Source of the DNA: a virus | Taxonomy: Duplodnaviria; Heunggongvirae; Uroviricota; Caudoviricetes | Virus record (IMG/VR): IMGVR_UViG_2713896799_000014 | Coordinates: 1 to 40,878 of that record | Reading direction: 5' to 3' (one strand) | Length of the DNA: 40,878 nucleotides | Shown: positions 1,009-40,878 of the stretch, piece after piece | Position numbering within the stretch: position 1 is the first letter of the stretch | Layout: each line of letters opens with the position of its first letter | The notes under the pieces: model-generated | The model's input: the letters and a program-made list of their open reading frames with translations, nothing else | The model's database searches: none | What the model was told of the DNA's origin: nothing | Program-made: the position numbers and the translations under genes

Positions 1009-1083
1009 GTCCTCTTAGTTAAATGGATATAACGAGCCCCTCCTAAGGGCTAATTGCAGGTTCGATTCCTGCAGGGGACACCA
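1009..1083 (+). tRNA. argW: tRNA-Arg (anticodon CCU)
   Basis: 75-nt cloverleaf read by eye: acceptor GTCCTCT/AGGGGAC, anticodon loop CT-CCT-AA, T-arm GGTTCGATTCC, 3' CCA. Confidence 0.9.
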
Positions 1084-1244
1084 TTTATCAGTTCGCTCCC
1101 ATCCGTACCAGTCCGCAAAATCCCCTGAATATAAAGCCTTCCGTAGATTCACAGTTCGTAATGGTTCGCGTCAGATCGTTGACAGCCGCACTCCATGACG
1201 GGTAAAAAGTGGATAAAATAATTTTACCCACCGGATTTTTACCC

Positions 1245-2402
1245 ATGCTCACCGTTAAGCAGATTGAAGCAGCAAAGCCGAAAGAAAAACCATACCGCCT
1301 TCTCGATGGTAATGGCCTGTACCTTTATGTCCCTGTATCCGGGAAAAAGGTATGGCAGCTTCGCTACAAGATTGACGGTAAGGAGAAAATCATGACCGTC
1401 GGAAAATATCCGCTTATGACTTTGCAGGAGGCCAGGGATAAAGCATGGACTGCGAGGAAAGACATCTCGGTTGGCATCGATCCGGTAAAAGCGAAAAAGG
1501 CTTCGTCTAATAACAATTCCTTTAGTGCGATTTACAAGGAATGGTACGAGCACAAGAAGCAAGTCTGGTCTGTAGGGTATGCGACTGAACTTGCCAAAAT
1601 GTTTGATGACGACATTTTACCCATCATCGGCGGTCTTGAAATTCAGGATATTGAGCCGATGCAACTGCTGGAAGTAATCCGCAGATTTGAAGATCGCGGC
1701 GCAATGGAGCGAGCCAACAAAGCACGCAGAAGATGCGGCGAGGTTTTCCGTTACGCTATTGTCACCGGAAGGGCTAAATATAACCCGGCACCTGACCTTG
1801 CTGACGCCATGAAGGGATACCGCAAGAAGAACTTCCCGTTTCTTCCTGCAGACCAGATCCCGGAATTCAACAAAGCACTGGCAACATTTTCAGGAAGTAT
1901 CGTATCGCTCATTGCCACCAAGGTTTTACGCTACACAGCCCTAAGAACGAAAGAGCTTCGTTCCATGCAATGGAAGAACGTCGATTTTGAAAACAGGATT
2001 ATCACCATCGACGCCAATGTGATGAAGGGACGCAAAATTCATGTGGTTCCTATGTCAGACCAGGTAGTTGAACTTCTCACTACGCTAAGCTCAATCACCA
2101 AACCAGTATCAGAGTTTGTTTTTGCCGGGCGCAACGATAAGAAGAAGCCAATTTGCGAGAACGCTGTACTGCTTGTGATCAAACAAATCGGCTATGAAGG
2201 TCTGGAAAGCGGTCACGGATTCAGGCATGAATTCAGCACGATTATGAACGAGCACGAATGGCCTGCTGATGCTATTGAAGTGCAACTGGCACATGCCAAC
2301 GGCGGATCTGTGCGCGGAATTTACAACCATGCTCAGTATCTCGATAAGCGCAGAGAAATGATGCAGTGGTGGGCGGATTGGATTGATGAAAAGGTGGAGT
2401 GA
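1245..2402 (+). CDS. intS: Tyrosine integrase, P4-type (IntS-like)
   Basis: 385 aa from internal Met MLTVKQIEAAKP; transcribed away from adjacent tRNA; matches recollection of K-12 IntS. Confidence 0.9.
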   Translation: MLTVKQIEAAKPKEKPYRLLDGNGLYLYVPVSGKKVWQLRYKIDGKEKIMTVGKYPLMTLQEARDKAWTARKDISVGIDPVKAKKASSNNNSFSAIYKEWYEHKKQVWSVGYATELAKMFDDDILPIIGGLEIQDIEPMQLLEVIRRFEDRGAMERANKARRRCGEVFRYAIVTGRAKYNPAPDLADAMKGYRKKNFPFLPADQIPEFNKALATFSGSIVSLIATKVLRYTALRTKELRSMQWKNVDFENRIITIDANVMKGRKIHVVPMSDQVVELLTTLSSITKPVSEFVFAGRNDKKKPICENAVLLVIKQIGYEGLESGHGFRHEFSTIMNEHEWPADAIEVQLAHANGGSVRGIYNHAQYLDKRREMMQWWADWIDEKVE

Positions 2403-2544
2403 TCCACCTTAACCACTATCGAAGAGCGCAAAGCCTTGCAATACAGTGCAAAGCTTTGTGTTTCTCATTTTTTCTCACCAGCAACAGAGATAACCGCCCT
2501 ATGTCTACTTAACGAACTAAATAACGTAGATAGTTCAAAATATA

Positions 2545-4503
2545 TTAACCTATTTTTGTGTAGGTCCAATTAAAAGTGCCTGTGCCCTGGCTTGTAATGG
2601 TTACAATTCTCCCTGTTGCTGAAAAACTAAGAAATGCTGCTATTTTTAACGCAACAAGAATTAGCTTATCTCCATCATACATTGCCAGTTGTGTAGATGC
2701 GTAATTTTCTCCGCTTCCAGCCCCCCATACGCTAATAATGTAAGTACCTTGCGAATCTGGTATAGAGAAAAGTGTTGTCGGAGTATTTTCAGCCACAGCA
2801 GTAGAGCCTTTACTGGTAGAGAAGCATGATGTTTGCAATCCTTCCTTAGATGTTATTTGTGAATAACCATCTACGATAAGTCCTGTTTTTTTAGGGCAGT
2901 CATACCATGATACATCACCAGTACTTAGCGTACTTAAAACAGGAGTTCCTGTAGTGGTTGCTCTGAACCGGCTATTAAAGACACTTATTTTAGCTGTGTC
3001 TATTGCATGTAACATAATGGGATACCCAGACCCAGTATATGCAACTGTGTTGTTGTCAGATAAATCATCTTCTGATGACTCAATTTTAACATCGCTGCTA
3101 CCTGACGCCCTGATGTAGGAAACTACACCAGCATCACTTGGCGCAACACTTCGCATGCTGTTCTGATGTGCAGTCAGGCCAGAAATGCCACCACTACTAT
3201 TTTCGAAATGGAATAGTGCTGCCTCTCCATAACCATCTGTAGAGATGGTGTTACCCTCCGCATCAAAACCAATAATGTTAAAACTATGTGTGTTAAGAAC
3301 ATGAACGCCAGCCCCACCAAGCGAACCTGCGTTTAACGAAATATTTGATCCATCCATGGCACAGTTAATCATTGTAGCTGCAAAGACAGAACCAAACTGA
3401 TATGGTGATATACATCCAGATGTATAACATCTTTCCATCAGAATGGTAGTGCCAGTTCCTTTTGTAAAACCATTATGGCAGTTTCTGGCCCACACATTCG
3501 TAAGTTTTGTCAAGTATGTGCCAGTCTGATCATTAAAGCATGACCATGCACCATGAACTGTACAGTTTTTAATTTCAGACATTTCCAAGCTTGTTGAATT
3601 TGGAATTGTCGAGTAGAAATTAAATGCAATTTTCCCACCATCATTTTCAGGATTCGTTGGTGTGGTTCCTGGATCATAGAAAATATAAAGACCATCAATA
3701 AAAATCTGAATCATTTTTGTCGATAGGGAATCACCTTGATCTAAAGCAAAGGCTGAAATATTACCAATAATAGACATAAATGATTGCGCTCTATTTATTG
3801 TATCAGTTCCCTCTCCAACAATCCTAACGGAGTTTTTCAGAAAAATAGTTGAATTATAGTAACCAGTTCCCTTTGGAATAAGCACTGTTTTCCCCGTGTT
3901 ACATGCGGACTGAAGCGCAGCATAATCAACAGATTGAGATAGAGATGAAACAAATGGATATACCATCTGAGCGGCTGATAGTGTTGAAAATATCTCGCTT
4001 AAAGGGTGAAGCGTTCCGTCAATTGTAGCGCCAAAATCAATAACACTTATAGCCTGTGAATTTTTAATGTGCTGTGAAATAGAAGTAGCACCAGTGTACG
4101 GTTGTTTAACTGTAACTAATGCATCCCCCATTCCATCAGCATCGCTTTCTAACTGCTGCTTAAACTGATCAGGGTCATACTTCAGCACATTAGGGAAATA
4201 GAACTGCTGCGCACCATACGCATCGTACACAGCCATAGAATGACCTTGCACAGTTACGAACTTGGCAATCTGTCCATTATATACCGGGTAACCAGCAGCG
4301 TTAATGATGATTGGTTGCGATACAGGAACGTGAGAACCGTCTTCATTCTCCACATAAACCTGAATCCGGTTTTCAGGATTTACCGGGTCAGTGTCAATTT
4401 TTCCGATATAAATTTCTCCATTGGCTACGGCTTTAAAAGAACGCGCCATAGTGAAAAGTTGCGAAGGCATCGATACGATCACATTGGCTGTAATGTCTGT
4501 CAT
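2545..4503 (-). CDS. Tailspike protein (P22 gp9-like N-terminal head-binding domain, divergent receptor-binding domain)
   Basis: N-terminus [29 protein letters not shown] matches P22 gp9 head-binding domain; remainder differs from P22 endorhamnosidase. Confidence 0.85.
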
Positions 4504-4561
4504 TTAATTTGCTCCAGATACAATGAATCGCCGCAGCGTGGCCACGGTGAATTTTGGGCAT

Positions 4562-4584
4562 AAAAAAACCCAGCCGAAGCTGGG
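4562..4584 (-). terminator. Rho-independent terminator between ant and tailspike gene
   Basis: Minus strand CCCAGC-TTCG-GCTGGG followed by TTTTTTT. Confidence 0.65.
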
Positions 4585-4603
4585 TCGTTGCGTTGGTTAT
4601 CTG

Positions 4604-5506
4604 TCAGTAGTTATGTACTGAAGGAGGTAATTCTTTATTCTTAAGTCTCATCCATGCGGAAAGATTCGTTGGTCCGTCTGGCTCATTAATATCAACATCT
4701 CGTGTGTGATTGATTAAAACGTCTCTCGCCATTCCGATAACATACGAGAATTCATGACCGTAGTCGTAGCATCTGCCGGAATAGTTCGATTGAATTTGTT
4801 TTAATGCCGGATACAGTTCGCGGAATAATGCCTGTGAACGGTTAGCATAATCCCATAGCCATACAAGGCTGTTTGCTTCTTTTGCAGAAAGCTCGTTGGT
4901 TTTCTTCTCTTGTTTGCCAATGAACTCACCTTCAAGCACCACCCTGTGGATGTACTCTACGGCTTGCGGTATCTGAGATGCATCAAGCTCTTCAATACTT
5001 TCCACATTGAAACGCTGATGAATCATTGCATAAGCTTCTGGGTACATTAGATGCTTTTTGCTGACCAGCATATTTACAGCATCACGAAGCGGAGTCCTGT
5101 CATCAACAGATGTTTTCTTACGTGCATTTTCTGCCTTTCCCTTTGTCCAGTAGTCATGCAGCACAGTAAAGCATTCTTCCTGGTACTGAATCAGTTTATC
5201 GCGGATGTCAGCACGAACTTTCTCAGGGTTGATGCTGAACAGCCATCCATTTAACTTCTTCAAAGGAAGGCAGAGTAGCTTACGAAGCTTTCCATCAGCA
5301 GCAACCATATTCATATGAATACAGTTGAACTTATCTAGTTGTTTCATAAGTTTTTGTTGCTGAGTACCCCAGCTCATTCCGAGGTTTTCAACGATTGGCT
5401 TCATCGCAACATATGCAACTCCGGCAGCCATGGCGGTGATAATTTGCTGACCGTTGAATGGCACGTAAGAGGTGTTCACTGCTTCTAAAATTGCTATACT
5501 ATTCAT
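4604..5506 (-). CDS. ant: Antirepressor Ant (P22 immI)
   Basis: 300 aa from [12 protein letters not shown] with GGAGA 6 nt upstream; positional and sequence similarity to P22 Ant. Confidence 0.8.
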
Positions 5507-5568
5507 GTTGGTTTTTCTCCAAGGATTTACCGACAACCGAAGCCCTGACTGTTACCGCAGTTGGGGCT

Positions 5569-5793
5569 TCAACTTTTCACTTCTTTAAAGTGCCTACCTT
5601 CTACAGTTGCTCTGAGATAAAAATTCTTATCTTTACCGTTTAGTGCTTCCCAAGCATCAACAATGCACTTATTACAGATGTGGACTTCTCGATAACCAAT
5701 AGCTTTCCTGTCAATATTAGTGAACATAACAGCTTCTTTATCTGTCAATGTGGATGCATGACAGAAGTCGCAATCTATATAAGATACCTTCAT
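5569..5793 (-). CDS. Small Cys4 zinc-ribbon protein, unknown function, inserted between arc and ant
   Basis: 74-aa ORF with CDFC...CNKC; start ATG overlaps arc stop (ATGA); not part of canonical P22 immI. Confidence 0.45.
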   Translation of the reverse strand: MKVSYIDCDFCHASTLTDKEAVMFTNIDRKAIGYREVHICNKCIVDAWEALNGKDKNFYLRATVEGRHFKEVKS

Positions 5794-5948
5794 ACCGTTA
5801 TCCCCTCTCTCTTCAGGCTGTCCATCACTCGCTTGTAAATCTCAGAGTTAACAGATCGCCCGTTCTCTTCCGCCACCTTACGCACCAAATCCAATACTTC
5901 TTTAGGCCACCGCAAATTGAACTGCGGCATTTTGCTCATTCCTTTCAT
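5790..5948 (-). CDS. arc: Arc repressor (ribbon-helix-helix)
   Basis: MKGMSKMPQFNLRWPKEVLDLVRKVAEENGRSVNSEIY matches P22 Arc from memory. Confidence 0.9.
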   Translation of the reverse strand: MKGMSKMPQFNLRWPKEVLDLVRKVAEENGRSVNSEIYKRVMDSLKREGITV

Positions 5949-6038
5949 ATTCACCTCACAATATAGGTCCACCGTGGACCTATTGAGAATATAGTAGAGT
6001 GCTTCTATCATGTCAATACACTAACTTGGGGTGATGGC

Positions 6039-6293
6039 ATGGCTAGAGACGATCCGCACTTTAACTTCCGTATGCCTTTGGAAGTAAGAGAAAAATTGAA
6101 ATTAAGAGCAGAGGCTAACGGAAGGTCAATGAACTCTGAGTTATTACAAATCGTTCAGGATGCTCTCTCAAAGCCATCATCAATTGTAGGCTATCGAGAC
6201 GAAGCTGAGCGAGTCGCGGATGAGCAATCTGACGTTGTTAAGAAGATGGTCTTTGAAACGCTGAAAAATATTTATAGCAAAAGTAAGTTATAG
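6039..6293 (+). CDS. mnt: Mnt repressor (ribbon-helix-helix), divergent from arc-ant
   Basis: MARDDPHFNFRMPLEVREKLKLRAEANGRSMNSELLQIVQDAL matches P22 Mnt from memory. Confidence 0.9.
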   Translation: MARDDPHFNFRMPLEVREKLKLRAEANGRSMNSELLQIVQDALSKPSSIVGYRDEAERVADEQSDVVKKMVFETLKNIYSKSKL

Positions 6294-6342
6294 GCTTATG
6301 ACGTACAGTTAACCATATCGATATTGGCTCGCGTGATGACAA

Positions 6343-7062
6343 ATGAAAAAAAGCAATGGACTCACATTAAAACTTGACGGAACCACCCCTGGCCAGCTGT
6401 CAATGGCTAAGTTGGTCAAGTATATGTCTGCTCTCGTAGATCTATACGGTTCTGCAGATTCTGTTCACTTCGACTGTGTAAGTGAAGGATCGGCTGACTT
6501 AAATGCATGGGTCGATAATGATATTTGTTATAACGCTGTCATAGCAAGGGCCTCTCTCTCAGCCAAAGAGAAATCACCCGCGTATCAAAAAATTGTTAAT
6601 TTACTGGAACATGATGGTTTTTCAGCGAAACTACTCGGACGAAACCACTCAACCATTATCGCATTCCCGCGAGTAAAAAAGGAGCCAATCCCTTTACTCA
6701 TAACAAAAACGTCAGAAGTTCAAGGAAGGCTATACAGTGTTGGTGGAAAAGACAACTCAATACCTGTGCGTATTGAGGGAGCCAACGGTGAAACATTCAA
6801 GTGCGAGGCAACCCCTGATTTGGCGGCAGCTCTTGGGTCCCATCTATTCAAATATATTAGGGTTAAAGGAGATGGGTGCTGGGAAAAAAAGAACAACAAA
6901 TGGGAGCTAAAGAAACTAAAAATAACTTCATTTGTATTGCTCAAAAAATCATCACTCAAGGATGCTATTAATGCTATCAAGCAAGTTCCTGGAGATCAGT
7001 GGTCCGAGGAACGCGATGTTGATTCAATCCTTAGGACTCTGAGGAAGATAAATTGCGAGTAA
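6343..7062 (+). CDS. Hypothetical protein, 239 aa; first gene of mnt-linked moron cassette
   Basis: Long ORF on mnt strand in an AT-rich stretch; no family recognised by eye; stop overlaps next ORF start. Confidence 0.6.
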   Translation: MKKSNGLTLKLDGTTPGQLSMAKLVKYMSALVDLYGSADSVHFDCVSEGSADLNAWVDNDICYNAVIARASLSAKEKSPAYQKIVNLLEHDGFSAKLLGRNHSTIIAFPRVKKEPIPLLITKTSEVQGRLYSVGGKDNSIPVRIEGANGETFKCEATPDLAAALGSHLFKYIRVKGDGCWEKKNNKWELKKLKITSFVLLKKSSLKDAINAIKQVPGDQWSEERDVDSILRTLRKINCE

Positions 7063-7601
7063 TTTTAGATACCAATATTCTGGTATACCTACTATCAGAT
7101 ATAGAACACGATTATAGATTATCTGACCCTATACTTGGTTCTGAGATTCCAGATGCCAAAAGAAGAGCAGAAGCTCTTGTTGATCGAATAGATAACAAGA
7201 ACGGGACAATCATCGTTCCAACTCCTGTATTGGCGGAGTTTTTAGTTGGAATCCATAAAGATTACCAACAAGAAAAACTAAATGTTATCAAATCGTTATC
7301 GTGCTTCGAGACTGTATCATTTGATGAGTTGGCTGCTATTGAATGCGCATCGATACCAACATTAAAAGAATTAAGGAAAATTAGCACAGAAGGTACAGCA
7401 AATAAAATTAAGTTTGACAGACAAATAATAGCAATTGCAAGAGCAATTAATGCTGACGAGGTATGGACTCATGATAAGGGAGTGTTTGAGCGTTGCAAAA
7501 GTCTCAATATTCCTGTGTTCACATTGTCATCAATAGAACCAATTCCGGTTCAAAGTCTCATGGAGTTCTTACACGATTCAGACGATCAGAGATTACACTA
7601 A
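7053..7601 (+). CDS. PIN-domain nuclease-like protein (TTG start)
   Basis: N-terminal ILDTNIL motif with acidic residues at about 6, 62, 122, 141; GAGGAAG 5 nt before TTG; 10-nt overlap with upstream ORF. Confidence 0.6.
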   Translation: MRVILDTNILVYLLSDIEHDYRLSDPILGSEIPDAKRRAEALVDRIDNKNGTIIVPTPVLAEFLVGIHKDYQQEKLNVIKSLSCFETVSFDELAAIECASIPTLKELRKISTEGTANKIKFDRQIIAIARAINADEVWTHDKGVFERCKSLNIPVFTLSSIEPIPVQSLMEFLHDSDDQRLH

Positions 7602-7728
7602 AATATAATTTTTATGCATCCGTGATAATTACATCCGTCACGGATACATAAAGCTATAGCCAAAAGTGGACAAACCTTTATCTCACTCCAAACCATCTGG
7701 TATCCTGCGTAAAACTAAGGAGGTTGGT

Positions 7729-8118
7729 GTGAAGCAATTTCTTGCTGCTATGTTCTTATTCATATCTTTTGGGGCTACAGCAGAGTGCTGGGTCGTTGGA
7801 GATATGCGCGGAATAAGCTATTCAGAACGAAATAATTTCCATCCGGAAGAAGATGGTTTTAGTGGAACATTCATCATTAAGACAAGCGGTGAAGATGCCA
7901 GCATCACATATTCTGGGACAGATGCGGGCGGCATGGCTTACAAAGCATTGTCTAAAAACTCCATCATAGGAATCGGCGCGAATGGCGAAACTCAACGCGT
8001 TATCGACTCATGGGTAATACATCCTACTGGAACAGTTTTAATGTCAAAAACCATTTCCGGTTATGGAAATATGGATTCAACCAAAGCTTTTGTTGGAAAA
8101 GTAAAAAGAAAATGTTAG
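7729..8118 (+). CDS. Small secreted/periplasmic protein, unknown function
   Basis: GTG start preceded by AAGGAGG; N-terminal signal peptide KQFLAAMFLFISFGATA then mature ECWVVGD; the track's upstream start has no RBS. Confidence 0.5.
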   Translation: MKQFLAAMFLFISFGATAECWVVGDMRGISYSERNNFHPEEDGFSGTFIIKTSGEDASITYSGTDAGGMAYKALSKNSIIGIGANGETQRVIDSWVIHPTGTVLMSKTISGYGNMDSTKAFVGKVKRKC

Positions 8119-8142
8119 CGATTGAATCCAATTTCCCATACG

Positions 8143-9984
8143 TTACTGCTGTGTTGCCTCAGTAGCAAACAGCGGTCTGATGGCATTCGCAGCGTTATTT
8201 AGCGCTCTTTCATAGGCTGGTGTTCCTGCTTTGGTGTTTGCCAAACGAAGAAGCATATTCCTTGCGGCTTTGGACTCATACAAACGCATCATTGCACCAA
8301 AGCCAGCCTCAAGCCCCATTGATACTCCAAGAGTCGCAGTTGCGCCAATCGTCCTTATCCTGTTGGCTTGTGATTGCCCCGTCTGAGTTACTACATTTGC
8401 GGTGTCTGACCTTGCTGTTTGCTGTAGAACTTCATGAAGAGCATCAAGCTCTTTCATGTGCTTTCCAGAAAAAATAGTGTTGTAAATTTCACCGCCTGAC
8501 TGAGATTTAAGCTTATTAACTTCAGTGATGAACTTGGCTGGAGAGTCACCGGCCTTTTCCGCTATTTTGCTGACGTAAGCTGCACGCATAGCATCTTTCC
8601 CTTTATCATCCAATGCGCTCCAGATTCGTTTCACGTCAGATGGCTTTCTGCTTAATACAACGGTATTTATAAGTTCAGGACTGGCTTCACTGCTTGCCTT
8701 GTTGAGCTTGTTAGCAATGTTTTTATTAAGCACCTTATTATAAACGTTTGCATAATCGGAGTTTGCTTTAAGGTATTTTGCTGCGTCTGATGCACCGAGG
8801 TTTTTTGCAACTGCGTTACGAAGATCTTTTGACATTGCATTCTCTACCATATTGGTAGCTGCTTTTGCCTGGTTGGGGAAGACCATAGCATCTCCCTGAA
8901 CATTGGATCTAAATACTGTTCTGTGCTGACGCAAGAGATCAAACGTAACATCCAAATCAGTTGCAGGGTTTGCTAATTCTTCACGTAGGTTACGCAAGGA
9001 TGTAAGCAGGCTTTGATTGGCAGACGTCCCAAGCCGTTCCTGTCTTGCGATCGCTGTATTCAGAGCATTCATGGTATTTGTGGTATCAACTGCGGCATTA
9101 CCCATTTTATTGGTGACGTCATTGATAACAGCGCCAGCGGCATCCTTCCGTCCCCTTAACGTGGTGGTCAGAGATTTCACCACATCATCAGGGTTGTACT
9201 CACCAAAACGGTCAAAATAATTGCTTACCAGCTTACTACGCGTTGCATATTGCTCCGCTCGCTTTGAGCCTGTCCCGAGCAAAGCCCCCTCAGCATCCTG
9301 AGTAAGTCCGCGAGTGAAAGCATTTTTCGGCGGGATAACATCAGATGTCATTGGTGTCACGCCCATCGATTCTGATGTGGCAATTTTCTTCGCCACTTCT
9401 GGCGCAATATCACCTTTTATAGCCGTTATTCCACGCCCTATTCCCTTTGCTGCTGCGGAAAGAACACCCTGAGCGGCAAGGTTAACTCCGGCATTTTTAG
9501 CTGCATTTTGTGCGAAATCACCTTTCTGATTTGCGGCCTCTGCCAGTGATCCAATAGCCATGCTTCCTGCCGTTCCAACTCCTGGAACTAAATACCCGCC
9601 AATTGTTTCTCCAGCTTGAGCGTAGGGGTCTGTCGGTCTGTCTACTGGACGATAGACATCATCCAATACTTTTGGCCCACCAAGCCCCTGACTGATTGCA
9701 TTAATCAGACTTGCGCCACCCTGCAATACGTCAAATGGTATGTTTACCAGACCACGACCAGCCTGTTCTGCAATTTGCCCTGCACTTTGACCACCAGTGA
9801 GCCAATCGCCAGCTTGTTGCATCAATGATGGTTCTTCCCGTGTTGGTGCATTATTGTCCTGATTAACTGTTTTTTGCTGAACAGCCTGACCAGCAAAATA
9901 CTCATCAATGGCGGTGCCAATATCTTCCGTGCTCGTACCATCAGGGAAGGTAAATGTCTTACCGTTTGCAGTTACTTTCATCAT
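8143..9984 (-). CDS. DNA ejection/injection protein (P22 gp16-like)
   Basis: 613 aa, position and size match P22 gene 16; overlaps gp20 stop. Confidence 0.8.
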
Positions 9985-12089: not shown

Positions 12090-12091
12090 GG

Positions 12092-31697: not shown

Positions 31698-31705
31698 GGA
31701 ATGTC

Positions 31706-31921: not shown

Positions 31922-32032
31922 ATGCCCTCCATAGTAACCATGAGACAATAATACGATATGTACTTTTGGAATGCAAACAAAAAATACATCTTGTGCATGG
32001 ATGGTTTTAGTACAGAGCGTAATAATAAGGAT
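31922..32032. promoter_or_regulatory. Divergent pR/pRM promoter and operator region
   Basis: 111-bp AT-rich spacer between divergent cro and cI starts; CGATA-N-GTAC-like motifs shared with the pL region; operators not resolved. Confidence 0.5.
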
Positions 32033-32692: not shown

Positions 32693-32723
32693 CAGCCTCA
32701 CCACTCTAAAACACACAACAATA

Positions 32724-32752
32724 ACCCGACCTTAGCGTCGGGTTTTCTTTTT
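32724..32752 (+). terminator. Rho-independent terminator downstream of cI
   Basis: ACCCGAC-CTTAGC-GTCGGGT followed by TTTTCTTTTT. Confidence 0.7.
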
Positions 32753-32817
32753 CCAAAATATAAACCCATTAAATACAAAGCGTTATAAAAAACTAATTAT
32801 ATTTAGAACATTTTGTA

Positions 32818-32853
32818 TTGACTCGATAAAGTACAAATCGTACTATTTAGCCA
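32818..32853 (+). promoter_or_regulatory. Early leftward promoter pL with putative OL
   Basis: TTGACT, 17-bp spacer containing GTACAAATCGTAC, TACTAT; transcript start region ATCAGCAGGACGCACTGACC as in lambda pL. Confidence 0.75.
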
Positions 32854-32885
32854 TCAGCAGGACGCACTGACCACCATGAAGGTGA

Positions 32886-32916
32886 GGCTCTTAAAAATTA
32901 AGCCCTGAAGAAGGGC
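32886..32916 (+). promoter_or_regulatory. nutL (boxA plus boxB hairpin)
   Basis: GCTCTTAAAAATTAA then GCCCTGAAGAAGGGC, as in lambda nutL. Confidence 0.85.
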
Positions 32917-33114
32917 AGCCTTCAAAGCAGAAGGCTTTGGGATTGGATGAATGAGCAGGCTGATGCTCGACCAATGTATAAACAGCGCTCATGGCAAGCA
33001 GTAACCAATCTGCGCCTCAAGACAGCGTCACTGGTAGTGCGGGCGCTCTAACCAGTAAGCCGGGGTTCAGCGCCGGCCATCCAATCACCAAAGCTAACTG
33101 ACAGGAGAATCCAG

Positions 33115-33447
33115 ATGGATGCACAAACACGCCGCCGCGAACGTCGCGCAGAGAAACAGGCTCAATGGAAAGCAGCAAATCCCCTGTTGGTTGGGGTAAG
33201 CGCAAAACCAGTTAACCGCCCTATTCTCTCGCTGAATCGCAAACCGAAATCACGAGTAGAAAGCGCACTGAATCCGATAGACCTTACAGTGCTGGCTGAA
33301 TACCACGAACAGATTGAAAGCAACCTGCAACGTATTGAACGCAAGAATCAGCGCACATGGTACAGCAAGCCACGCAGTGAAATGGGTGTGACATGCTCAG
33401 GCCGCCAGAAGCAACGCGGAAAATCAATTCCGGCTTATTACGATTGA
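33115..33447 (+). CDS. N: Antiterminator N
   Basis: MDAQTRRRERRAEKQAQWKAANPLLVGVSAKPVNRPILSLNRKPKSRVESALNPIDL matches lambda N incl. arginine-rich motif. Confidence 0.9.
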   Translation: MDAQTRRRERRAEKQAQWKAANPLLVGVSAKPVNRPILSLNRKPKSRVESALNPIDLTVLAEYHEQIESNLQRIERKNQRTWYSKPRSEMGVTCSGRQKQRGKSIPAYYD

Positions 33448-33649
33448 GGTAGTCATGCTCAAGAAAGTCAAACGCCGACTTTACAAAGAAGGTAGATATT
33501 CATGCCAATTGCCAAAATGCGACACAGCAAAATGGAGTGTCGACGATTGGTGTAACTGGATAGATAGATACGGAACTTGGTGGGATAAATAACAGGTAAC
33601 TTAAGCGGATTTATTTTCGCAGCAAACCACTTATTTGAGAGGAATTAAT

Positions 33650-34273
33650 ATGTCATCAATTCGCTTAACTACGAGAATGAAAGAGGAAATCGCTCGTAAC
33701 GCTTTAATTAAGTCTGGGGTTTTCACTGAACTTGAAGAAGTAACAAAGTTAAAGAACCAGCTTGCACTTGACGCCAGAGTTATTGCGTTTGGCGGTAAAA
33801 AGAAAACTGAGGAAGTGGATCAGTTATCATCCAAGTTGGTAGCTATAAGTGAAGAACTTGAAAAGATGGGATGTTCATTTTACTCATACGATTTTCGTTC
33901 TACTTCAATTTATCTGACTGTATCTGGAAGAAGGGTTGGATGGCATTCATATGGGAAAGACGGCAACGGCGAAGATATATTGCTTCCTACTCCGACAAAA
34001 GATAAATGCATGTTTGACGCAGAACACAAAATAACAAAAAGGTTTGATGAAATCTGCGCATTGCAACAAAACCTTGAAGCCTTGAAAAAGGATATCGAAT
34101 CAAATGTATGGGCTGCTTTGAACTCAGTCACAACAGTTAAGCGACTTATTGAAGTTTGGCCTGAAAGCAAAGAATTGCTACCAAAAGAAGCAGATAAAGC
34201 AAGTACAGCACTTCCTGCTTTACGGGTAGAAGATTTGAATAAGATGATTGGACTTCCTTCCGAGGCCGCATAG
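33650..34273 (+). CDS. Hypothetical protein, 207 aa; pL-proximal moron
   Basis: ATG with GAGAGGAA RBS; AT-rich; followed by its own terminator; no family recognised. Confidence 0.55.
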   Translation: MSSIRLTTRMKEEIARNALIKSGVFTELEEVTKLKNQLALDARVIAFGGKKKTEEVDQLSSKLVAISEELEKMGCSFYSYDFRSTSIYLTVSGRRVGWHSYGKDGNGEDILLPTPTKDKCMFDAEHKITKRFDEICALQQNLEALKKDIESNVWAALNSVTTVKRLIEVWPESKELLPKEADKASTALPALRVEDLNKMIGLPSEAA

Positions 34274-34288
34274 TCGGCCTTTATTTTT
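34263..34288 (+). terminator. Rho-independent terminator overlapping stop of the 207-aa gene
   Basis: AGGCCG-CATAGT-CGGCCT followed by TTATTTTT. Confidence 0.6.
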
Positions 34289-34407
34289 GGCATAAACAAC
34301 AGAATAAACACTGCACTGTGTATTCATTCCAACGAGTGAATACACGGAGCAATGTCGCTCGTAACTAAACAGGAGTCGACTTGTTCTGATTATTGGAAAT
34401 CTTCTTT

Positions 34408-34433
34408 GCCCTCCAGTGTGAGGGCATTTTTTT
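34408..34433 (+). terminator. Rho-independent terminator upstream of the 138-aa gene
   Basis: GCCCTC-CAGTGT-GAGGGC followed by ATTTTTTT. Confidence 0.7.
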
Positions 34434-34445
34434 GACGGAGGAATT

Positions 34446-34862
34446 ATGGAAATTACAGATATTCTGGTTAATCCAGATAATTACGACCAATTCAATATCT
34501 CTACTCAATCAGTTGATTTGGGATGTGCAACTGTCAGCGCATGGCTACTTAATGGTAAACAGTTGGATAAATGCCTTGATGCACATATGACGGTTAACAG
34601 CTTCCTTGCAGAAAAAACACACTGGCAAGATGCTGGAGGGAAATATGCTGGATGGCTTGAAAGCATGGGATTTGAATATCAATCTGATGAAGGTTGGTGG
34701 AGCCTTATAGCTGTAACGCCTGAGACAATAGAGTGCTTCGTTAAATACTCAAACGACGATGACTATAAACACCAGGTAGATTCTGCGATAGAAAGATATA
34801 AAAGAAAATCATTCAGCCACGAAATATCATCAGTTCTTGATTTCATAGAAGTCTTCAAATAA
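34446..34862 (+). CDS. Hypothetical acidic protein, 138 aa
   Basis: ORF with GACGGAGGAA RBS; no family recognised. Confidence 0.55.
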   Translation: MEITDILVNPDNYDQFNISTQSVDLGCATVSAWLLNGKQLDKCLDAHMTVNSFLAEKTHWQDAGGKYAGWLESMGFEYQSDEGWWSLIAVTPETIECFVKYSNDDDYKHQVDSAIERYKRKSFSHEISSVLDFIEVFK

Positions 34863-34946
34863 GCCGCCTAAGCGCGGCTTTACCGCATACCAATAACGCT
34901 TCACTCGAGGCGTTTTCGTTATGCAATCAAACAGAAGGAGCATCCT

Positions 34947-35117
34947 ATGCAACAGTTCGCTATTGCAGGGGCGGCATCGGTTCGCCCTTTCAACCCGATT
35001 TTATCGGTGCAGCATTCACGAAAAAATATTTTAACCGGAGCAGACTTTAAACAACCAAGAATGAAAAGTTTGCTCGAAAAGCTTTGGGATATTTTGAAAC
35101 AACAAGGCCGTCCATGA
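34947..35117 (+). CDS. cIII: CIII-like protein (protease inhibitor)
   Basis: 56-aa ORF with AAGGAG RBS; MQQFAIAG...LLEKLWDILKQQGRP resembles lambda CIII. Confidence 0.55.
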   Translation: MQQFAIAGAASVRPFNPILSVQHSRKNILTGADFKQPRMKSLLEKLWDILKQQGRP

Positions 35118-35284
35118 GTTTTACAGATAACTGGTCAGACGAAGAATTCATTCGTCAGATGAAAGAATTAATCGGTAACGAAGGAGATATTCATGTCACT
35201 TGCAACCACAGTGAAGGAGAGCAAGTTACAGAGACGCATGTACACGCAGCAGGCGTTAATGTATCGCCAGAATGGAGATCGTGA
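35114..35284 (+). CDS. Small hypothetical protein at kil-like position
   Basis: 56-aa ORF whose ATG overlaps cIII stop (ATGA); positional only. Confidence 0.35.
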   Translation: MSFTDNWSDEEFIRQMKELIGNEGDIHVTCNHSEGEQVTETHVHAAGVNVSPEWRS

Positions 35285-35371
35285 AGGTGTTCGCGTCTTT
35301 TTAAATGCGGCAAAGACTGAAGTATTAAATCAGCGTTATTTCCTTGGGCCATGTCCATTCTGAGGTGAATT

Positions 35372-36079
35372 ATGGATTTGAACAAATTCGATGAGCCATT
35401 CAGCCCTGAAGATATCGAATGGCGAATACAGCAAAGCGGTAAAACACGCGATGGCAAGGTGTGGGCTATGGTGCTGGCTTATGTCACGAACAGGGCAATC
35501 ATGAAACGCCTGGACGATGTTTGCGGCAAAGCAGGATGGCGCAATGAATACCGCGATATTCCCAACAACGGAGGCGTTGAATGCGGCATATCAATAAAGA
35601 TTGATTCCGAATGGGTAACCAAATGGGATGCAGCTGAAAACACGCAGGTAGAAGCCGTAAAAGGTGGTCGTTCCGGTGCAATGAAGCGCGCTGCCGTTCA
35701 GTGGGGAATCGGTCGGTATCTGTATAACCTTGAGGAAGGTTTCGCACAAACATCTCTCGACAAAAAGCAGGGATGGCACAGGGCAAAACTCAAGGATGGA
35801 ACAGGATTTTACTGGCTCCCTCCATCGCTGCCGGGCTGGGCAATCCCAGCATCAGATAACAAACCATCACCAGAAAATACCAACCAGAAATCTCCATCGG
35901 TTGACTGCGAACAAATCCTGAAAGACTTCAGCGATTATGCATCAACAGAAACTGACAAGAAAAAACTCATCGAGCGTTATCAGCGTGACTGGCAATTAAT
36001 GGCTGGCAACGAGGAGGCGCAGGCTAAATGCGTTCAGGTAATGAACATCAGAGTTAACGAACTAAAACAGGCGGCATAA
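35372..36079 (+). CDS. Rad52/Sak-family single-strand annealing protein
   Basis: 235 aa with WGIGRYLY motif typical of Rad52-like recombinases; GAGGTGA RBS; immediately precedes ssb. Confidence 0.7.
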   Translation: MDLNKFDEPFSPEDIEWRIQQSGKTRDGKVWAMVLAYVTNRAIMKRLDDVCGKAGWRNEYRDIPNNGGVECGISIKIDSEWVTKWDAAENTQVEAVKGGRSGAMKRAAVQWGIGRYLYNLEEGFAQTSLDKKQGWHRAKLKDGTGFYWLPPSLPGWAIPASDNKPSPENTNQKSPSVDCEQILKDFSDYASTETDKKKLIERYQRDWQLMAGNEEAQAKCVQVMNIRVNELKQAA

Positions 36080-36553
36080 ATGGCAAGCAGAGGCGTAAAT
36101 AAGGTGATCATTATTGGTCGCCTTGGGCATGATCCAGAAATCAGATATTCACCATCAGGAACGGCATTTGCAAACCTTACAGTTGCTACGTCAGAACAAT
36201 GGCGTGATAAGCAAACTGGAGAGCAAAAGGAGCAGACGGAGTGGCACCGCGTGGTAATGAGCGGGAAACTGGCAGAAATTGCCAGCGAATATCTGCGAAA
36301 AGGCTCTGAGGTTTATCTTGAAGGCAAATTGCGGACAAGAAAATGGCAGGATCAAAGCGGACAGGATCGGTTCACTACCGAAGTTATCGTAGGCGTTGGT
36401 GGAACCATGCAAATGCTTGGTGGAAAGCAAGGAAGCAATGAACAGTCTTCACCTCAGCGAAATAACGGCCAGCAACAAAGACAGCAATCTCAGCAGCATG
36501 GGAATCACAGCGAACCACCTATGAACTTCGACGATTCGGATATTCCGTTCTAG
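36080..36553 (+). CDS. ssb: Single-stranded DNA-binding protein SSB
   Basis: OB-fold N-terminus [23 protein letters not shown], Gly/Gln-rich linker, acidic tail ending DDSDIPF. Confidence 0.9.
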
Positions 36554-36562
36554 GAGCTGAAT

Positions 36563-37042
36563 ATGAAAATCTGCTCAAGATGCCATCAATAGAAGGAAGA
36601 AAGGGACTTTCAAATCAGAAGAGCATCCAGAGATGGATTAACTGCCGCTTGCCGGGCTTGCCTGGCTGAATACGACAAAGAACGCGCTGGATTGCCACAT
36701 CGAGTATCAGCAAGGAGAGAATATCAATCATCGGAACGCGGAAGAGAACGGTGTAACGCAGCCAAAAAGCGGTTCATTCAGAGCAACCCATGGAAAAGAA
36801 AAGCCCACATCATTGTGGGTAATTTTTTGCGCGACGGTAAGCTAATCCGACCACCAAAATGTGAGTGCTGCGGATCAGAATGTAAACCACAGGCGCACCA
36901 CTGCGACTACAGCAAACCAACCGATGTGATGTGGCTCTGCAAGTCATGTCATGTCGAGTGGCACAAACATAACAAACCTATCTACCCAGACGAGGAGCCA
37001 GTAACCCTCCCCTTCCCTCGTCACGCTATTCACGCAATTTAA
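36563..37042 (+). pseudogene. HNH-like zinc-finger nuclease gene interrupted by in-frame amber codon at codon 10
   Basis: ATG with AGGAG 7 nt upstream, then MKICSRCHQ, TAG at 36590-36592, same frame open to 37042; C-terminal HHCD...CKSCHVEWH. Confidence 0.45.
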
Positions 37043-37055
37043 TCAGGAGAAAATC

Positions 37056-37352
37056 ATGCCAGCGCCTCTGTATGGTGCGGACGACGCGCGCCGCTGTTCC
37101 GGCAATTCCGTATTGGAGGTGCTGGAAAATATCAAAAACAATTTCGATGCATTTCTTACTCTGCCACCAGAAACAAAAGCGGAACGGATGTACCGACGCG
37201 ATATACAACTCGCGCTAAAACAGGAGAAGGACCGAACAAACGAAACAGCAATGAGACCGTTGCGAAAAGCGACAATAGACAAATTCCCTGAATATATCGA
37301 CCCACGCCTGCGTAATTACCGCTCACGCTATGGCGCTATCAGTAATGACTGA
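37056..37352 (+). CDS. Hypothetical protein, 98 aa
   Basis: ORF with CAGGAGAAAA RBS in the early-left operon. Confidence 0.5.
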
Positions 37353-37362
37353 GGAATTTACC

Positions 37363-37530
37363 ATGAGAGGACTTGCATACAATCCCGGCATTCTTCCGGC
37401 AGAAATGATTATTCGCCAACGCGTAAAGACAATGCCATCGAGAGAGGAATCACTTAAGCGAAACTCGTTTCCATCAGTGAATCAGAACAAATATCTGAAT
37501 GCGATGTGGCGTAAAGGAGGCAACCAGTGA
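37363..37530 (+). CDS. Small hypothetical protein
   Basis: 55-aa ORF from MRGLAYNPG with GAGGAA RBS; stop overlaps next GTG start. Confidence 0.4.
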
Positions 37531-38171
37531 GCAACCGTTTTTACATGATGTGTTTGCGTGAAACTGTGGGTAATAACGCCTCATTCCATTGCCATAACGG
37601 CAATGGTTACAGTTCTGATATCGATCGCGCTCATGTTTACACGCTGGAAGAAGCCCTAAAAGCCTGGAATTGTGGGCGAGATATCGATCAGCCTGTTTGT
37701 GCCGATAGTGTGGATGCAATGGCTGTGTGGCACGTTGATTGCCAGTACATCCCTACAGAAAGCCTGATTGAGTCAGATTGCACTGCGTATGTAGCCTACA
37801 AAAAAGGTAGCTGGAACGGCAACGATGTTTACTGGCTTCAACACGGTGGATTGCCAACAGATGACTTCAGTAAAGCGACCATCTTTAGCGTCGCCAACAA
37901 AAACGAACCAGGAATAGTTTGGTTGCCATTTTCCATCGCCGATGCAGCAAAGCGCCGGACGTTCAATATCAATAACTTTAACCGCAGAACAATGGTTCAG
38001 GGCGCAGGTTTGGTCATGCCTGACTGGTTGAAAGAGCAGAACAGAAGAAAGAAGTCGCGAAGCGGGAAGGTGCGTTGGAATTGTCCGCATTGCGGAAAAA
38101 TCACCTGGCAGTACAGCCCATATGATTTTGAAGGCTGTAGTGATTACAACTGTGAAGGATGGCGAGAATGA
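37527..38171 (+). CDS. Hypothetical Cys-rich protein, 214 aa
   Basis: GTG start after AAAGGAGG; several Cys/His clusters incl. C-terminal CPHCG...CEGW. Confidence 0.55.
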
Positions 38172-38635
38172 CAATTGACTATCAGGCACTGCGTGAGGCG
38201 GCAGAACGTGCAACTCCAGCAATGGAACGCCTGTTAATGTTGCCAGTTGATGATGATTTGTTAAGTGAACAGGAGCTTAAAGATTACGGTGTGGATATTG
38301 ATGCGCTCAACGCCTTCAAATTTCTGACCGGACCAGAAACCGTGCTGGCGCTGCTGGATGAACGGGAAAGAAACCAGCAATACATCAAACGCCGCGACCA
38401 GGAGAACGAGGATATTGCGCTAACGGTAGGGAAACTGCGTGTTGAGCTGGAAGCCGCAGAGAAGCGGATTGCTGACATGGAGGCGCGGGAGGTTGTACTG
38501 CCGCGTGCGCACGATGTTCACCCATTAGGGCCGCAGTCGGCGAAAATTTTTTGTGAGTTTCACCGGAGTATCGTGAACAGATGCGCCGATGAGATTCGCA
38601 AGGTTGGCGTCAAAGTCAGCATCAAGGGGAATTAG
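38168..38635 (+). CDS. Ead/Ea22-like protein
   Basis: ATG overlaps upstream stop (ATGA); coiled-coil-rich sequence resembling prophage Ead/Ea22-family proteins. Confidence 0.5.
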   Translation: MTIDYQALREAAERATPAMERLLMLPVDDDLLSEQELKDYGVDIDALNAFKFLTGPETVLALLDERERNQQYIKRRDQENEDIALTVGKLRVELEAAEKRIADMEAREVVLPRAHDVHPLGPQSAKIFCEFHRSIVNRCADEIRKVGVKVSIKGN

Positions 38636-38639
38636 GGAT

Positions 38640-39422
38640 ATGGCTGAACTAACCAAAGAATGGCTGAAGCAAACTATCGCTGAATACGAAGCCAATCGTG
38701 ATGAATTACCGTTTGGACTGGATACCAACAGTGCCATTGAGCTTCAGGCGTTCAAGTTGGCGCTGGCATCGCTGGAAGCAGAACCAGTTGCTTATATTTT
38801 CAAACATCCGGCTGGAAAATTATTCTGGGCTTTAACGGATGAAAGCAATAAAGAGCAATCGGACGTTATTCCTGTTTATGCCGCCCCTCCAGTGCCAGTA
38901 GTACCTGAAGAAAAACCAATGCCTAACCCTCTTAAAATGTACGCGGTTGATGCTGTTGCCGCTATTGCAGAGGTGAGAGGCTGGAACGCCTGCCGCGCCG
39001 CCATGCTTCAGGGTAGCCAACCTGTAAGCCAAACTTACAACTTGCCAGAATTAATCGAAGGCATGGAAGTTTCCATTGATGTAAGCACTTGTGATGCTGA
39101 TTTAGGTAATCGCTATTTCGGCACCGTCACCGAGGCGTTAGAACTTGATACAGCCAAGAATGGTTACATCCTCCTGGTTCAGGACGCAGAGCCAAACTTC
39201 GATGTAAATGGCAACTCTCCGGGAACTCCGGATAGTTGGATTCCGCTAAGCGAAAGGATGCCGGAACCTTATGAATACGTTCTTGTAACTGATGGTTTTG
39301 ATGGCTGTGAGGTTATGCGTGTTAATACAGATGGCTACTGGGGGCCAGCAAAGAGTTTATATCCAGGTAGTATTACCCACTGGATGCCACTGCCAGCAGC
39401 ACCGCAGCAGGAGGTGAAGTGA
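38640..39422 (+). CDS. DUF551-like prophage protein
   Basis: C-terminal WIPLSERMPE...YVLVTDG...HWMPLP resembles the DUF551 module common in enterobacterial prophages. Confidence 0.5.
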   Translation: MAELTKEWLKQTIAEYEANRDELPFGLDTNSAIELQAFKLALASLEAEPVAYIFKHPAGKLFWALTDESNKEQSDVIPVYAAPPVPVVPEEKPMPNPLKMYAVDAVAAIAEVRGWNACRAAMLQGSQPVSQTYNLPELIEGMEVSIDVSTCDADLGNRYFGTVTEALELDTAKNGYILLVQDAEPNFDVNGNSPGTPDSWIPLSERMPEPYEYVLVTDGFDGCEVMRVNTDGYWGPAKSLYPGSITHWMPLPAAPQQEVK

Positions 39423-39424
39423 GT

Positions 39425-39610
39425 ATGAGTGCATCACTAATAACCGCCTTCAATCAAAGTGCAAATCCAAGCAATGAGCAGGTTGTTGTGTTCGGCTGGA
39501 TTGCTGAGTATTTCGAAAGCATTTTCGACGATGAATCCGCTAGGTATTGCAGGAATATTTCTGAATCACTCAAAAATCAGGTTTCTGCTCAACAGGAGGT
39601 GAAGTCGTGA
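39425..39610 (+). CDS. Small hypothetical protein
   Basis: ORF starting just after a conserved CAGGAGGTGAAGTGA junction. Confidence 0.45.
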   Translation: MSASLITAFNQSANPSNEQVVVFGWIAEYFESIFDDESARYCRNISESLKNQVSAQQEVKS

Positions 39611-39819
39611 GCAAGCACATCATCAAATATGACTATCGAGAGGGAGTTAAACTCCCTAAGCACGAGATTGAGACATGGTGCGGTCATCGGCCAGGGTCAT
39701 TCGAATGGCTTTTTCAGGATGCTCAGCATGCGCTATTGAGCATTGAGCAGGGAACGCTGCTTGTTCCTTGCAAGAATTGTCTGGCAGCAATCATCAAAAC
39801 GGCGCAGGAGGTGAAGTGA
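39607..39819 (+). CDS. Small hypothetical protein
   Basis: GTG start within the second junction motif; 70 aa. Confidence 0.45.
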   Translation: MSKHIIKYDYREGVKLPKHEIETWCGHRPGSFEWLFQDAQHALLSIEQGTLLVPCKNCLAAIIKTAQEVK

Positions 39820-40103
39820 TGGACCCCTTCGCGAAATATACGATTATTGACTGGATAGCCTTCCTTCAGGTTTTGCTCATCTGGTTTTATATGGCTTACA
39901 GGAGTGGACAGTGGATTGTCAGTGTAGCCTGTAGCAAGGGATGGCGTTGGTGGAACCGAAAGAATAAAAAAGCACTGGCATTGGATTCGTTTTACGAAGC
40001 ATTCAATCTTAACAGTCTTCGGCCTGGTTCTGTCGTTGTAGTCACCACTCAAAGCGGCATGACGATACAAATTCACAAGCCAAAGGAGGAAGGTCGTGGC
40101 TAA
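39819..40103 (+). CDS. Small hydrophobic protein
   Basis: 94 aa from MDPFAKYTIIDWIAFLQVLLIWFYMAY (one TM helix); ATG within the third junction motif. Confidence 0.45.
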   Translation: MDPFAKYTIIDWIAFLQVLLIWFYMAYRSGQWIVSVACSKGWRWWNRKNKKALALDSFYEAFNLNSLRPGSVVVVTTQSGMTIQIHKPKEEGRG

Positions 40104-40380
40104 CCTGCAACTTGCCGTCAAAGGTGAATACTTCGATGCCATGATTCGCGGGGAGAAAACGGAAGAGTATCGCCTGTGCAATGACTACTGGAATAAGCGA
40201 ATTATGTTCCGGGAATATGACCGTCTGATTATCACAAAGGGATATCCGAAGCGCGACGATTCCAGCCGTAGAATTGACGTCCCGTATGACGGGTATGAAA
40301 TCAAGACAATCACACATCCGCACTTCGGCGATAAACCGGTAAAGGTGTTCGCGATAAAGGTAAATATCGGCACTGAATAA
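40096..40380 (+). CDS. Hypothetical protein, 94 aa
   Basis: GTG start after AAAGGAGGAAGG; followed by tandem terminators. Confidence 0.5.
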   Translation: MANLQLAVKGEYFDAMIRGEKTEEYRLCNDYWNKRIMFREYDRLIITKGYPKRDDSSRRIDVPYDGYEIKTITHPHFGDKPVKVFAIKVNIGTE

Positions 40381-40384
40381 CAAT

Positions 40385-40439
40385 CCTCGCACTCGCGGGG
40401 ATTTCTTTTATCTGAACTCGCTACGGCGAGTTTTGTTTT
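40385..40439 (+). terminator. Two tandem rho-independent terminators
   Basis: CCTCGC-ACTC-GCGGGG + ATTTCTTTT and ACTCGC-TACG-GCGAGT + TTTGTTTT. Confidence 0.6.
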
Positions 40440-40452
40440 ATGGAGATGATAA

Positions 40453-40620
40453 ATGCACTTCCGAGTCACAGGTGAATGGAATGGAGAACCATTCAACAGA
40501 GTTATCGAAGCAGAGGACATCAACGACTGCTATAACCACTGGATGATATGGGCGCAGATAGCACATGCAGACGTAACCAATATTCGAATTGAAGAACTGA
40601 AAGAACACAAAAACGCCTGA
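40453..40620 (+). CDS. Small hypothetical protein, 55 aa
   Basis: ATG with GGAGA RBS; ORF below track cut-off; weak hairpin plus T-run at its 3' end. Confidence 0.35.
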   Translation: MHFRVTGEWNGEPFNRVIEAEDINDCYNHWMIWAQIAHADVTNIRIEELKEHKNA

Positions 40621-40677
40621 TGGCGGTTTTTTATTGCCTGATTTGCAGGTTCGATTCCCTATTCGGAGATAGCACTC

Positions 40678-40878
40678 ATGCAACACGAACTACAACCTGA
40701 TTCACTGGTTGATTTGAAATTCATCATGGCCGATACTGGCTTCGGTAAGACCTTCATCTACGACCGGATTAAGTCCGGCGACCTGCCTAAAGCCAAAGTT
40801 ATCCACGGACGAGCAAGATGGTTATATCGTGACCATTGTGAATTCAAAAATAAGCTCTTAAGCCGCGCCAATGGGTAA
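40678..40878 (+). CDS. torI: Excisionase / recombination directionality factor, AlpA family (TorI-like)
   Basis: 66 aa MQHELQPDSLVDLKFIMADTGFGKTFIYDRIKSGDLPKAKVIHGRARWLYR; matches my recollection of E. coli TorI, the KplE1 excisionase. Confidence 0.85.
   Translation: MQHELQPDSLVDLKFIMADTGFGKTFIYDRIKSGDLPKAKVIHGRARWLYRDHCEFKNKLLSRANG

Follow-up and report, generated by a model that had tools for sequence, protein, structure and literature searches.

The window analysed here, a 40,878-nt stretch of a Caudoviricetes virus record (IMG/VR record IMGVR_UViG_2713896799_000014), begins with the host gene yfdC and the tRNA gene argW, continues with the integrase gene intS and ends at the stop codon of torI. 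From position 1069 to its end, the window very probably represents a structurally complete P22-like (Lederbergvirus) temperate podovirus prophage of about 39.9 kb that has inserted into the 3' end of argW by means of the IntS/TorI recombination module. The prophage is a mosaic, combining an IME10/P22-type head and an Sf6-type needle with lambda-type O, P, ren, cII and Q genes and with a tailspike specificity that was not seen in cultured phages. The positions of all features are compiled in Table 1.

Gene content and boundaries of the prophage

Every open reading frame (ORF) was compared with the annotated proteins of phages P22, Sf6, HK620, IME10 and lambda, and frameshifts and truncations were screened for by reverse tblastn. 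All 13 virion genes of P22 were present as complete ORFs on one strand (2545-21989), arranged in the order 3-2-1-8-5-4-10-26-14-7-20-16-9, and the same virion genes were called with the P22 Pfam families in sibling assemblies. Coat, scaffold, portal and the terminase proteins TerL and TerS were 98.8-100% identical to the proteins of the cultured phage IME10, and on the DNA level positions 13193-22015 matched IME10 with 96.3% identity. The ejection and tail proteins, with the exception of gp20, matched those of P22, Sf6, HK620 and IME10 over their full length; gp7 was 100% identical to IME10, the needle 98.9% to Sf6, gp10 98.9% to HK620 and gp16 74.6% to P22 over 613 amino acids (aa). For gp20, only the N-terminal approximately 270 residues aligned to the reference phages. 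The lysis proteins were likewise full length, being 98-100% identical to their Sf6, HK620, IME10 or lambda counterparts.

A lambdoid early region was present as well, with cI, cro, cII, N, Q and the replication genes. The DNA of positions 29310-31699, including nutR, was 98.8% identical to lambda, and that of positions 24496-26748 was 97.5% identical. The nutR site agreed with that of lambda, and the nutL boxB was read in the window as GCCCTGAAGAAGGGC. The C-terminal domain of CI is of the lambda type, with an Ala-Gly cleavage context (VQAGMF), a Ser motif (GNSM) and a Lys motif (FKKL); the N-terminal DNA-binding domain is unlike that of lambda. Operator-like repeats of the form AGTACAnnnCGTAnT number about three in the interval from cro to cI, with three more in front of N. 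This immunity region occurs with 98-99% DNA identity in the cultured phages Dewey, Louie, 720R6 and phi458, of which Dewey and Louie are temperate and form turbid plaques on Escherichia coli (PMC11990801). The second immunity region, immI, has divergent promoter-like sites at 5983-6016. Its 74-aa ORF abuts the sar RNA locus, and P22 has no gene at that position.

None of the virion, lysis, replication or regulatory genes showed a frameshift or truncation in the tblastn screen, and the comparisons with the proteins of the five reference phages brought up neither a transposase nor an insertion sequence. The regions for lysis, replication and antitermination are intact, as are the two immunity regions. 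An earlier note on this DNA had described a complete morphogenetic, lysis and regulatory genome bracketed by intS and torI, with no obvious frameshifts in essential genes. Both statements were borne out, as homologues of every P22 virion gene are full length and the screen found no such lesion.

The left boundary was located by DNA comparison. Identity to E. coli K-12 MG1655 was 100% over positions 1-1068 and fell to 95.9% exactly from 1069 on, where the 16-nt core CTGCAGGGGACACCAT starts, which has been given for the K-12 element KplE1 by Panis et al. (PMC2951348). When window positions 1060-1250 were aligned (193 columns) with K-12 attL and the attP regions of HK620, Sf6 and IME10, mean column identity was 97%. 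On the left side of the core, the window has the tRNA sequence and the attP regions of HK620, Sf6 and IME10 have phage sequence; the right side is near-invariant in all five aligned sequences, including the TTGACA -35 box of the intS promoter. With host-type DNA to the left of the core and near-invariant phage-type DNA to its right, the junction at 1069 is a precise attL. The earlier note had placed the element correctly at argW, but had let it start at 1009, whereas the actual start is at 1069 inside the gene.

IntS was 98.7% identical to the K-12 protein, 98.4% to the integrases of Sf6 and IME10 and 97.9% to that of HK620. TorI, which is encoded at the prophage end opposite to IntS and attL, was identical in 66 of 66 residues to K-12 TorI, HK620 HkaC and Sf6 gp18. 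The window has the core CTGCAGGGGACACCAT only once and reaches no further than the torI stop codon, so that attR is not part of it. In three assemblies whose right end is identical or near-identical to that of the window (L007, L008 and L009), the core follows 73 bp after the torI stop. From these copies the whole element would measure about 39.9 kb, which is normal for the group.

Close to the right end, the argW T-arm sequence TGCAGGTTCGATTCC, which is located at 1055-1069, recurs as an exact 15-nt repeat at 40644-40658 (+ strand). This second copy is found 20 bp before the start of torI and near the onset of homology with K-12 (40628) and IME10 (40623); homology with Sf6 and HK620 at this end begins at about 40570. 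Possibly it is what remains of an older tRNA attachment site and marks the boundary of the module. An exact cII-type TTGC-N6-TTGC site was not found upstream of torI. At that place the spacing is N5, in keeping with the HK620 annotation, in which the site is 13 nt long.

Table 1. Coordinates of the features in the 40,878-nt window
Feature	Position	Strand	Basis
yfdC (host flank)	1-933	+	protein 100% identical to K-12 YfdC
argW tRNA-Arg(CCT), integration target	1009-1083	+	ARAGORN and Rfam tRNA model
attL core CTGCAGGGGACACCAT, 16 nt	1069-1084	+	equals published KplE1 core; single copy in window
attL P' arm overlapping intS promoter	1085-1244	+	conserved alignment; role from PMC2951348
intS, tyrosine integrase, 385 aa	1245-2402	+	protein comparison
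empty O-antigen-modification slot between int and tailspike	2403-2544	.	142 bp without ORF
tailspike, 652 aa	2545-4503	-	Pfam Head_binding; full-length match to phrog_8649
immI region (ant, sar, 74-aa ORF, arc, mnt)	4604-6293	.	protein matches and Rfam
ant	4604-5506	-	86% protein identity to P22 Ant
sar RNA	5507-5574	+	Rfam RF00262, 97 bits
74-aa ORF between arc and ant	5569-5793	-	weak zinc-finger match below cut-off
arc	5790-5948	-	90% protein identity to P22 Arc
mnt	6039-6293	+	82% protein identity to P22 Mnt
sieA-slot cargo (239-aa OB-fold protein, 182-aa PIN protein, 150-aa ORF)	6343-8118	+	family searches, context, fold evidence
239-aa protein, predicted OB fold	6343-7062	+
182-aa PIN-domain protein	7053-7601	+	overlaps 239-aa gene
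ejection and tail genes (gp16, gp20, gp7, gp14, needle of Sf6 type, gp10, gp4)	8143-15313	-	P22/Sf6/HK620/IME10 protein matches
head and packaging genes (coat, scaffold, portal, TerL, TerS)	15632-21989	-	full length against IME10
lysis cassette (S holin, R endolysin, Rz, Rz1)	22878-24095	-	protein matches
tRNA-Thr(TGT) and tRNA-Asn(GTT)	24338-24493	-	ARAGORN and Rfam; same pair in Sf6
lambda-like late-control leader pR'/qut/tR'	24496-24763	-	3' of Q on Q's coding strand
lambda-type Q	24764-25387	-	99.5% identical to lambda Q
nin region (ninB, E, X, F, G, H, I)	25384-29303	-	protein matches, Pfam
HNH-AP2 endonuclease inserted between ninF and ninG	26807-27373	-	Pfam
ren, P, O (with ori), cII, lambda type	29376-31586	-	99-100% protein identity to lambda
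immC region (cro, OR, cI, OL/PL)	31706-32860	.	read from sequence
cro	31706-31921	-	HTH_3 match
OR	31922-32032		operator-like repeats
cI, 219 aa	32033-32692	+	lambda-type C-terminal domain
OL/PL	about 32770-32850		operator-like repeats
nutL and N antiterminator (N 33115-33447)	32885-33447	+	N 99% identical to Sf6 gp37
early-left accessory/recombination genes (Nmad5, cIII, erf, ssb, gene-26 homologue, abc2, ea22-like, DUF551, DUF4752)	33635-40620	+	protein matches, family searches
Sf6 gene 26 homologue, 159 aa, Cys-rich, annotated endonuclease	36563-37042	+	nonsense-interrupted
torI, recombination directionality factor, 66 aa	40678-40878	+	last gene; window ends at torI stop codon

Independent copies and predicted inducibility

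None of the cultured phages and none of the 5,426 complete E. coli genomes covers at least 80% of any 12-25 kb piece of the window. Draft assemblies for tiling were recovered by exact-protein look-ups. Assembly L031 covers positions 1-15401 at 100%, and L028 matches 1-21429 apart from one mismatch and a break of 2 bases at 15401-15402. A 5.2-Mb contig, L049, covers 18823-39089 at 100%, and the right end (33289-40878) is covered by L008 (100%) and L009. Altogether, the tiles are 99.99-100% identical to the window. An assembly chimera was considered as the source of the unique mosaic and rejected, since the overlapping tiles come from independent assemblies and span every junction. With each module junction independently supported, the mosaic is real and no assembly artefact.

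The exact tailspike protein occurs in 59 index blocks of E. coli assemblies and the complete 468-aa sequence of gp20 in 54 index blocks. From these counts, the prophage is common in sequenced E. coli. The tailspike and gp20 copies lie beside intS, argW and yfdC in every place shown but one, where a gp20 copy is part of another mosaic. To the right of attR, the core is followed in L007 and L009 by the dsdC-side flank as in K-12. In L008 and L018 a csc sucrose-utilisation cluster, with a LacY-type permease, a PfkB kinase and a GH32 invertase, is found instead of dsdC. An omptin gene lies right of attR in L019. In a metagenomic copy, L029 (8033-8841), the needle gene is split into ORFs of 204 aa and 67 aa; the needle gene of the window is intact.

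Established knowledge of lambda and P22 was used to derive the likely course of the regulatory and lytic cycle. CI, with its motifs for lambda-type RecA-dependent self-cleavage, would repress PL and PR via three operator-like sites on each side. Repression would be lifted by DNA damage, or by the Ant antirepressor when it escapes control by Mnt, Arc and sar. N acting at nutL and nutR, followed by Q acting at the lambda-type qut, would then drive early and subsequently late transcription. TorI, produced from the early-left transcript, is predicted to excise the genome between attL and attR together with IntS and IHF, and IntS would be supplied from its own autoregulated promoter inside attL. 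Lambda O and P would replicate the genome, the P22-type terminase would package it by headfuls, and S, R, Rz and Rz1 would lyse the cell.

As no disabling lesion was found in any essential gene, it is plausible that the prophage is inducible. Several points weigh against a complete and functional prophage. The right junction of the window's own copy was deduced from identical copies elsewhere, with attR being outside the window. The accessory early gene homologous to Sf6 gene 26 has a CAG-to-TAG change at codon 10 (36590-36592), being otherwise 98.7% identical to Sf6. This nonsense codon, which also occurs in the 100%-identical copies L008 and L049, is the sole lesion found in the window. The 22-bp P22 pac sequence was not found with up to 3 mismatches; this miss was not counted against function, since TerS, which is 100% identical to IME10 TerS, shares only 82% identity with P22 TerS. 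Furthermore, no cultured phage with this particular set of modules is on record as forming plaques, and missense or regulatory defects, which a comparison of gene lengths would not reveal, may be present.

Hidden defects of this kind underlie the alternative that the prophage looks intact but is functionally cryptic, gives no infectious particles and is kept for immunity, exclusion or its cargo. It could draw on the nonsense mutation already present in one accessory gene, on the split needle gene of L029 as decay within the lineage and on the absence of the exact module combination among cultured phages, but every essential gene has its full length and a counterpart, 75-100% identical, in a phage that forms plaques. 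In addition, the prophage has a complete recombination module and two complete immunity regions, and identical DNA was found across many independent assemblies, as expected of a recently mobile element. Altogether, we consider a cryptic state unlikely and favour the structurally complete, plausibly inducible P22-like prophage.

Strains carrying this prophage probably hold an inducible generalized-transducing phage beside their dsd or csc loci. P22-like prophages have been reported to begin replication and packaging before excision (PMC11990801), and hence lateral transfer of the neighbouring dsd or csc genes is possible.

Relation to KplE1 and to cultured phages

KplE1 (CPS-53), which occupies argW in K-12, is a 10.2-kb remnant without a repressor (PMC2951348). 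The earlier note had regarded the window as a progenitor-type version of this element and had proposed a whole-region alignment to the K-12 argW locus. In this alignment the ends matched, but the interior did not. Only positions 1-2487 (97.7% identity; yfdC, argW, intS) and 40628-40878 (96.4%; torI) aligned, and the K-12 interior of about 8.5 kb (gtrABS, yodE, tfaS, yfdK, yfdL, yfdM-T) had no nucleotide match in the window. On the protein level, YfdO was the only K-12 interior protein with a likeness, a weak one to the C-terminus of lambda O. Instead, 68% of the length of the K-12 interior (L001, 3290-11760) matched Shigella phage SfIV (L033) with 93.4% identity, and there were matches to SfV, SfII and, over the yfdN-T block, several E. 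coli phages as well. In SfIV, its counterparts are the gtr cluster, the early genes that correspond to yfdQ-T, and tail-fibre and tail-fibre-assembly genes, which adjoin baseplate genes.

Since its interior is unmatched in the window and matches SfIV, SfV and SfII instead, KplE1 is a different mosaic, namely an SfIV/SfV-like remnant that carries the IntS/TorI module, and not as a decayed P22-like phage. What both elements share is integration in argW, the 16-nt core, the attL arm including the intS promoter, IntS (98.7%) and TorI (100%), which amounts to about 1.4 kb at the attL-intS end and about 0.25 kb at the torI end only; KplE1 differs by its SfIV/SfV-like interior and by carrying gtrABS. 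The window prophage is related to KplE1 only through the recombination module. That it is the undeleted progenitor, with the K-12 remnant formed from it through loss of internal DNA and acquisition of gtr, is highly improbable, as the common attachment site, integrase and TorI and the placement of int and the directionality factor gene at opposite ends are outweighed by an interior in K-12 that aligns nowhere to the window, resembles it on the protein level only weakly through YfdO, and holds SfIV-like tail-fibre and assembly genes, baseplate-adjacent in SfIV and absent from a P22-like podovirus.

The claim that the gtr serotype-conversion genes are missing after intS proved correct. The distance from the intS stop to the tailspike stop is 142 bp, and the protein comparison revealed no homologue in the window of K-12 gtrA, gtrB or gtrS, P22 gtrABC, Sf6 oac or HK620 hkcF, and no O-antigen polymerase homologue either.

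Among the cultured phages, the E. coli Lederbergvirus IME10 (JF974339) was the best overall DNA match; in searches with the two halves of the query, it covered 53-59% of them at 96.5% identity. IME10 shares the integrase, the attP core and coat, scaffold, portal, TerL, TerS and gp7 (98.8-100%), but it differs by a helicase-type P gene, another repressor, a P22-type needle (233 aa) and another tailspike, and nothing in it matches the ant/arc/mnt region or the cargo in the sieA slot of the window. Sf6 and HK620 have the attP core between int and the TorI homologue, TorI (100%), Int (98%) and the P22-like gene order in common with the window, as well as the Sf6-type needle, N, erf, ssb and the lysis genes (97-100%). 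In contrast, their terminase, portal (only 33% identity), scaffold and coat are of the Sf6 type and their replication genes are other ones; Sf6 also has another Q, and of immI, HK620 has only remnants (annotated mnt and ant). The slot next to int, which is empty in the window, is filled in Sf6 by oac and in HK620 by hkcF.

P22 shares the 13 virion genes in the same order, with 47-93% protein identity, and furthermore immI (mnt, arc, sar, ant) and the head-binding domain of the tailspike. It differs by another integrase and excisionase, which are placed side by side, by carrying gtrABC and sieA, and by replication genes 18 and 12, where the window has lambda O and P. The P22 attachment site is thrW, not argW.

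The IntS/TorI module has been described as highly conserved in CUS-3, HK620, Sf6 and prophages of APEC-O1 and UTI89, and the TorI, HkaC and Sf6 P18 proteins as 100% identical (PMC2951348, PMC3509656). Its sharing among HK620, Sf6, CUS-3 and other argW prophages is therefore already published. The prophage of the window is a new mosaic of a well-known kind, the Lederbergvirus prophages at argW. Common intS and torI genes mark a widely exchanged recombination module and not common descent of whole prophages, the interior of the K-12 remnant being derived from an SfIV/SfV-like phage. Beyond annotation the significance is small and, the pair of OB-fold and PIN proteins described below aside, nothing is new in kind apart from the tailspike specificity.

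Tailspike, cargo slots and accessory genes

Residues 1-113 of the tailspike matched the Head_binding family PF09008 (E=1.3e-65), and matches to the N-termini of the Sf6 and P22 tailspikes were obtained in the Protein Data Bank (PDB). The receptor-binding part (2548-4152, - strand) reached at most 53% identity to any protein from 50,697 phage records, with lateral tail fibres and tailspikes of siphoviruses as best matches. The O-antigen specificity of this tailspike is without a representative among cultured phages. In other argW prophages, gtr or acyltransferase genes fill the adjacent O-antigen-modification slot. This empty slot and the variable sieA slot are sites of cargo swapping in such phages.

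The sieA slot between mnt and gene 16 (6300-8140) is a cargo hotspot, the contents of which vary among prophages that are identical over positions 1-4936 (loci L010-L017). Among these siblings, the slot is occupied by a P63C-domain protein, a SocA/Panacea protein, a ClpP-like protease, SieA or the same OB-fold/PIN pair as in the window. The third cargo ORF of the window (about 7694-8140) showed 99% DNA identity to Salmonella phage Emek. For the 239-aa OB-fold protein, 58 clusters of homologues were found, all annotated as hypothetical. The PIN protein gave weak, below-cut-off matches to VapC in NCBIfam and no sequence match in the PDB. Both genes are also neighbours in Pseudomonas prophages, where they come immediately after the repressor gene, and on a chromosomal islet of Pectobacterium beside Fic and IS1. 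Because the pair stays together in these settings, it is a candidate two-gene module for exclusion or of the toxin-antitoxin type. We tentatively suggest that the OB-fold protein and the PIN-domain nuclease might form a hitherto undescribed system of the prophage for exclusion, abortive infection or toxin-antitoxin action, a possibility that we regard as less likely than not. The accessory genes, including this pair, had no meaningful match in PADLOC (2023).

The exact protein look-up gave no record for a 114-aa ORF at 28482-28826. By contrast, the exact sequence of the HNH-AP2 endonuclease within the nin region occurs in 14,190 index blocks representing many different lambdoid prophages, a wide spread that is expected of a mobile homing-endonuclease gene. 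The tRNA-Thr/tRNA-Asn pair lies just downstream of the lambda-type pR'/tR' leader (24338-24652), and near it a homologue of lambda orf64 is split into two frames. Just downstream of N, a protein with the nucleotide-modification-associated domain 5 (Nmad5) and a 138-aa protein of unknown function are encoded (33635-34862, + strand), at a position where other lambdoid phages have exclusion or restriction-alleviation genes.

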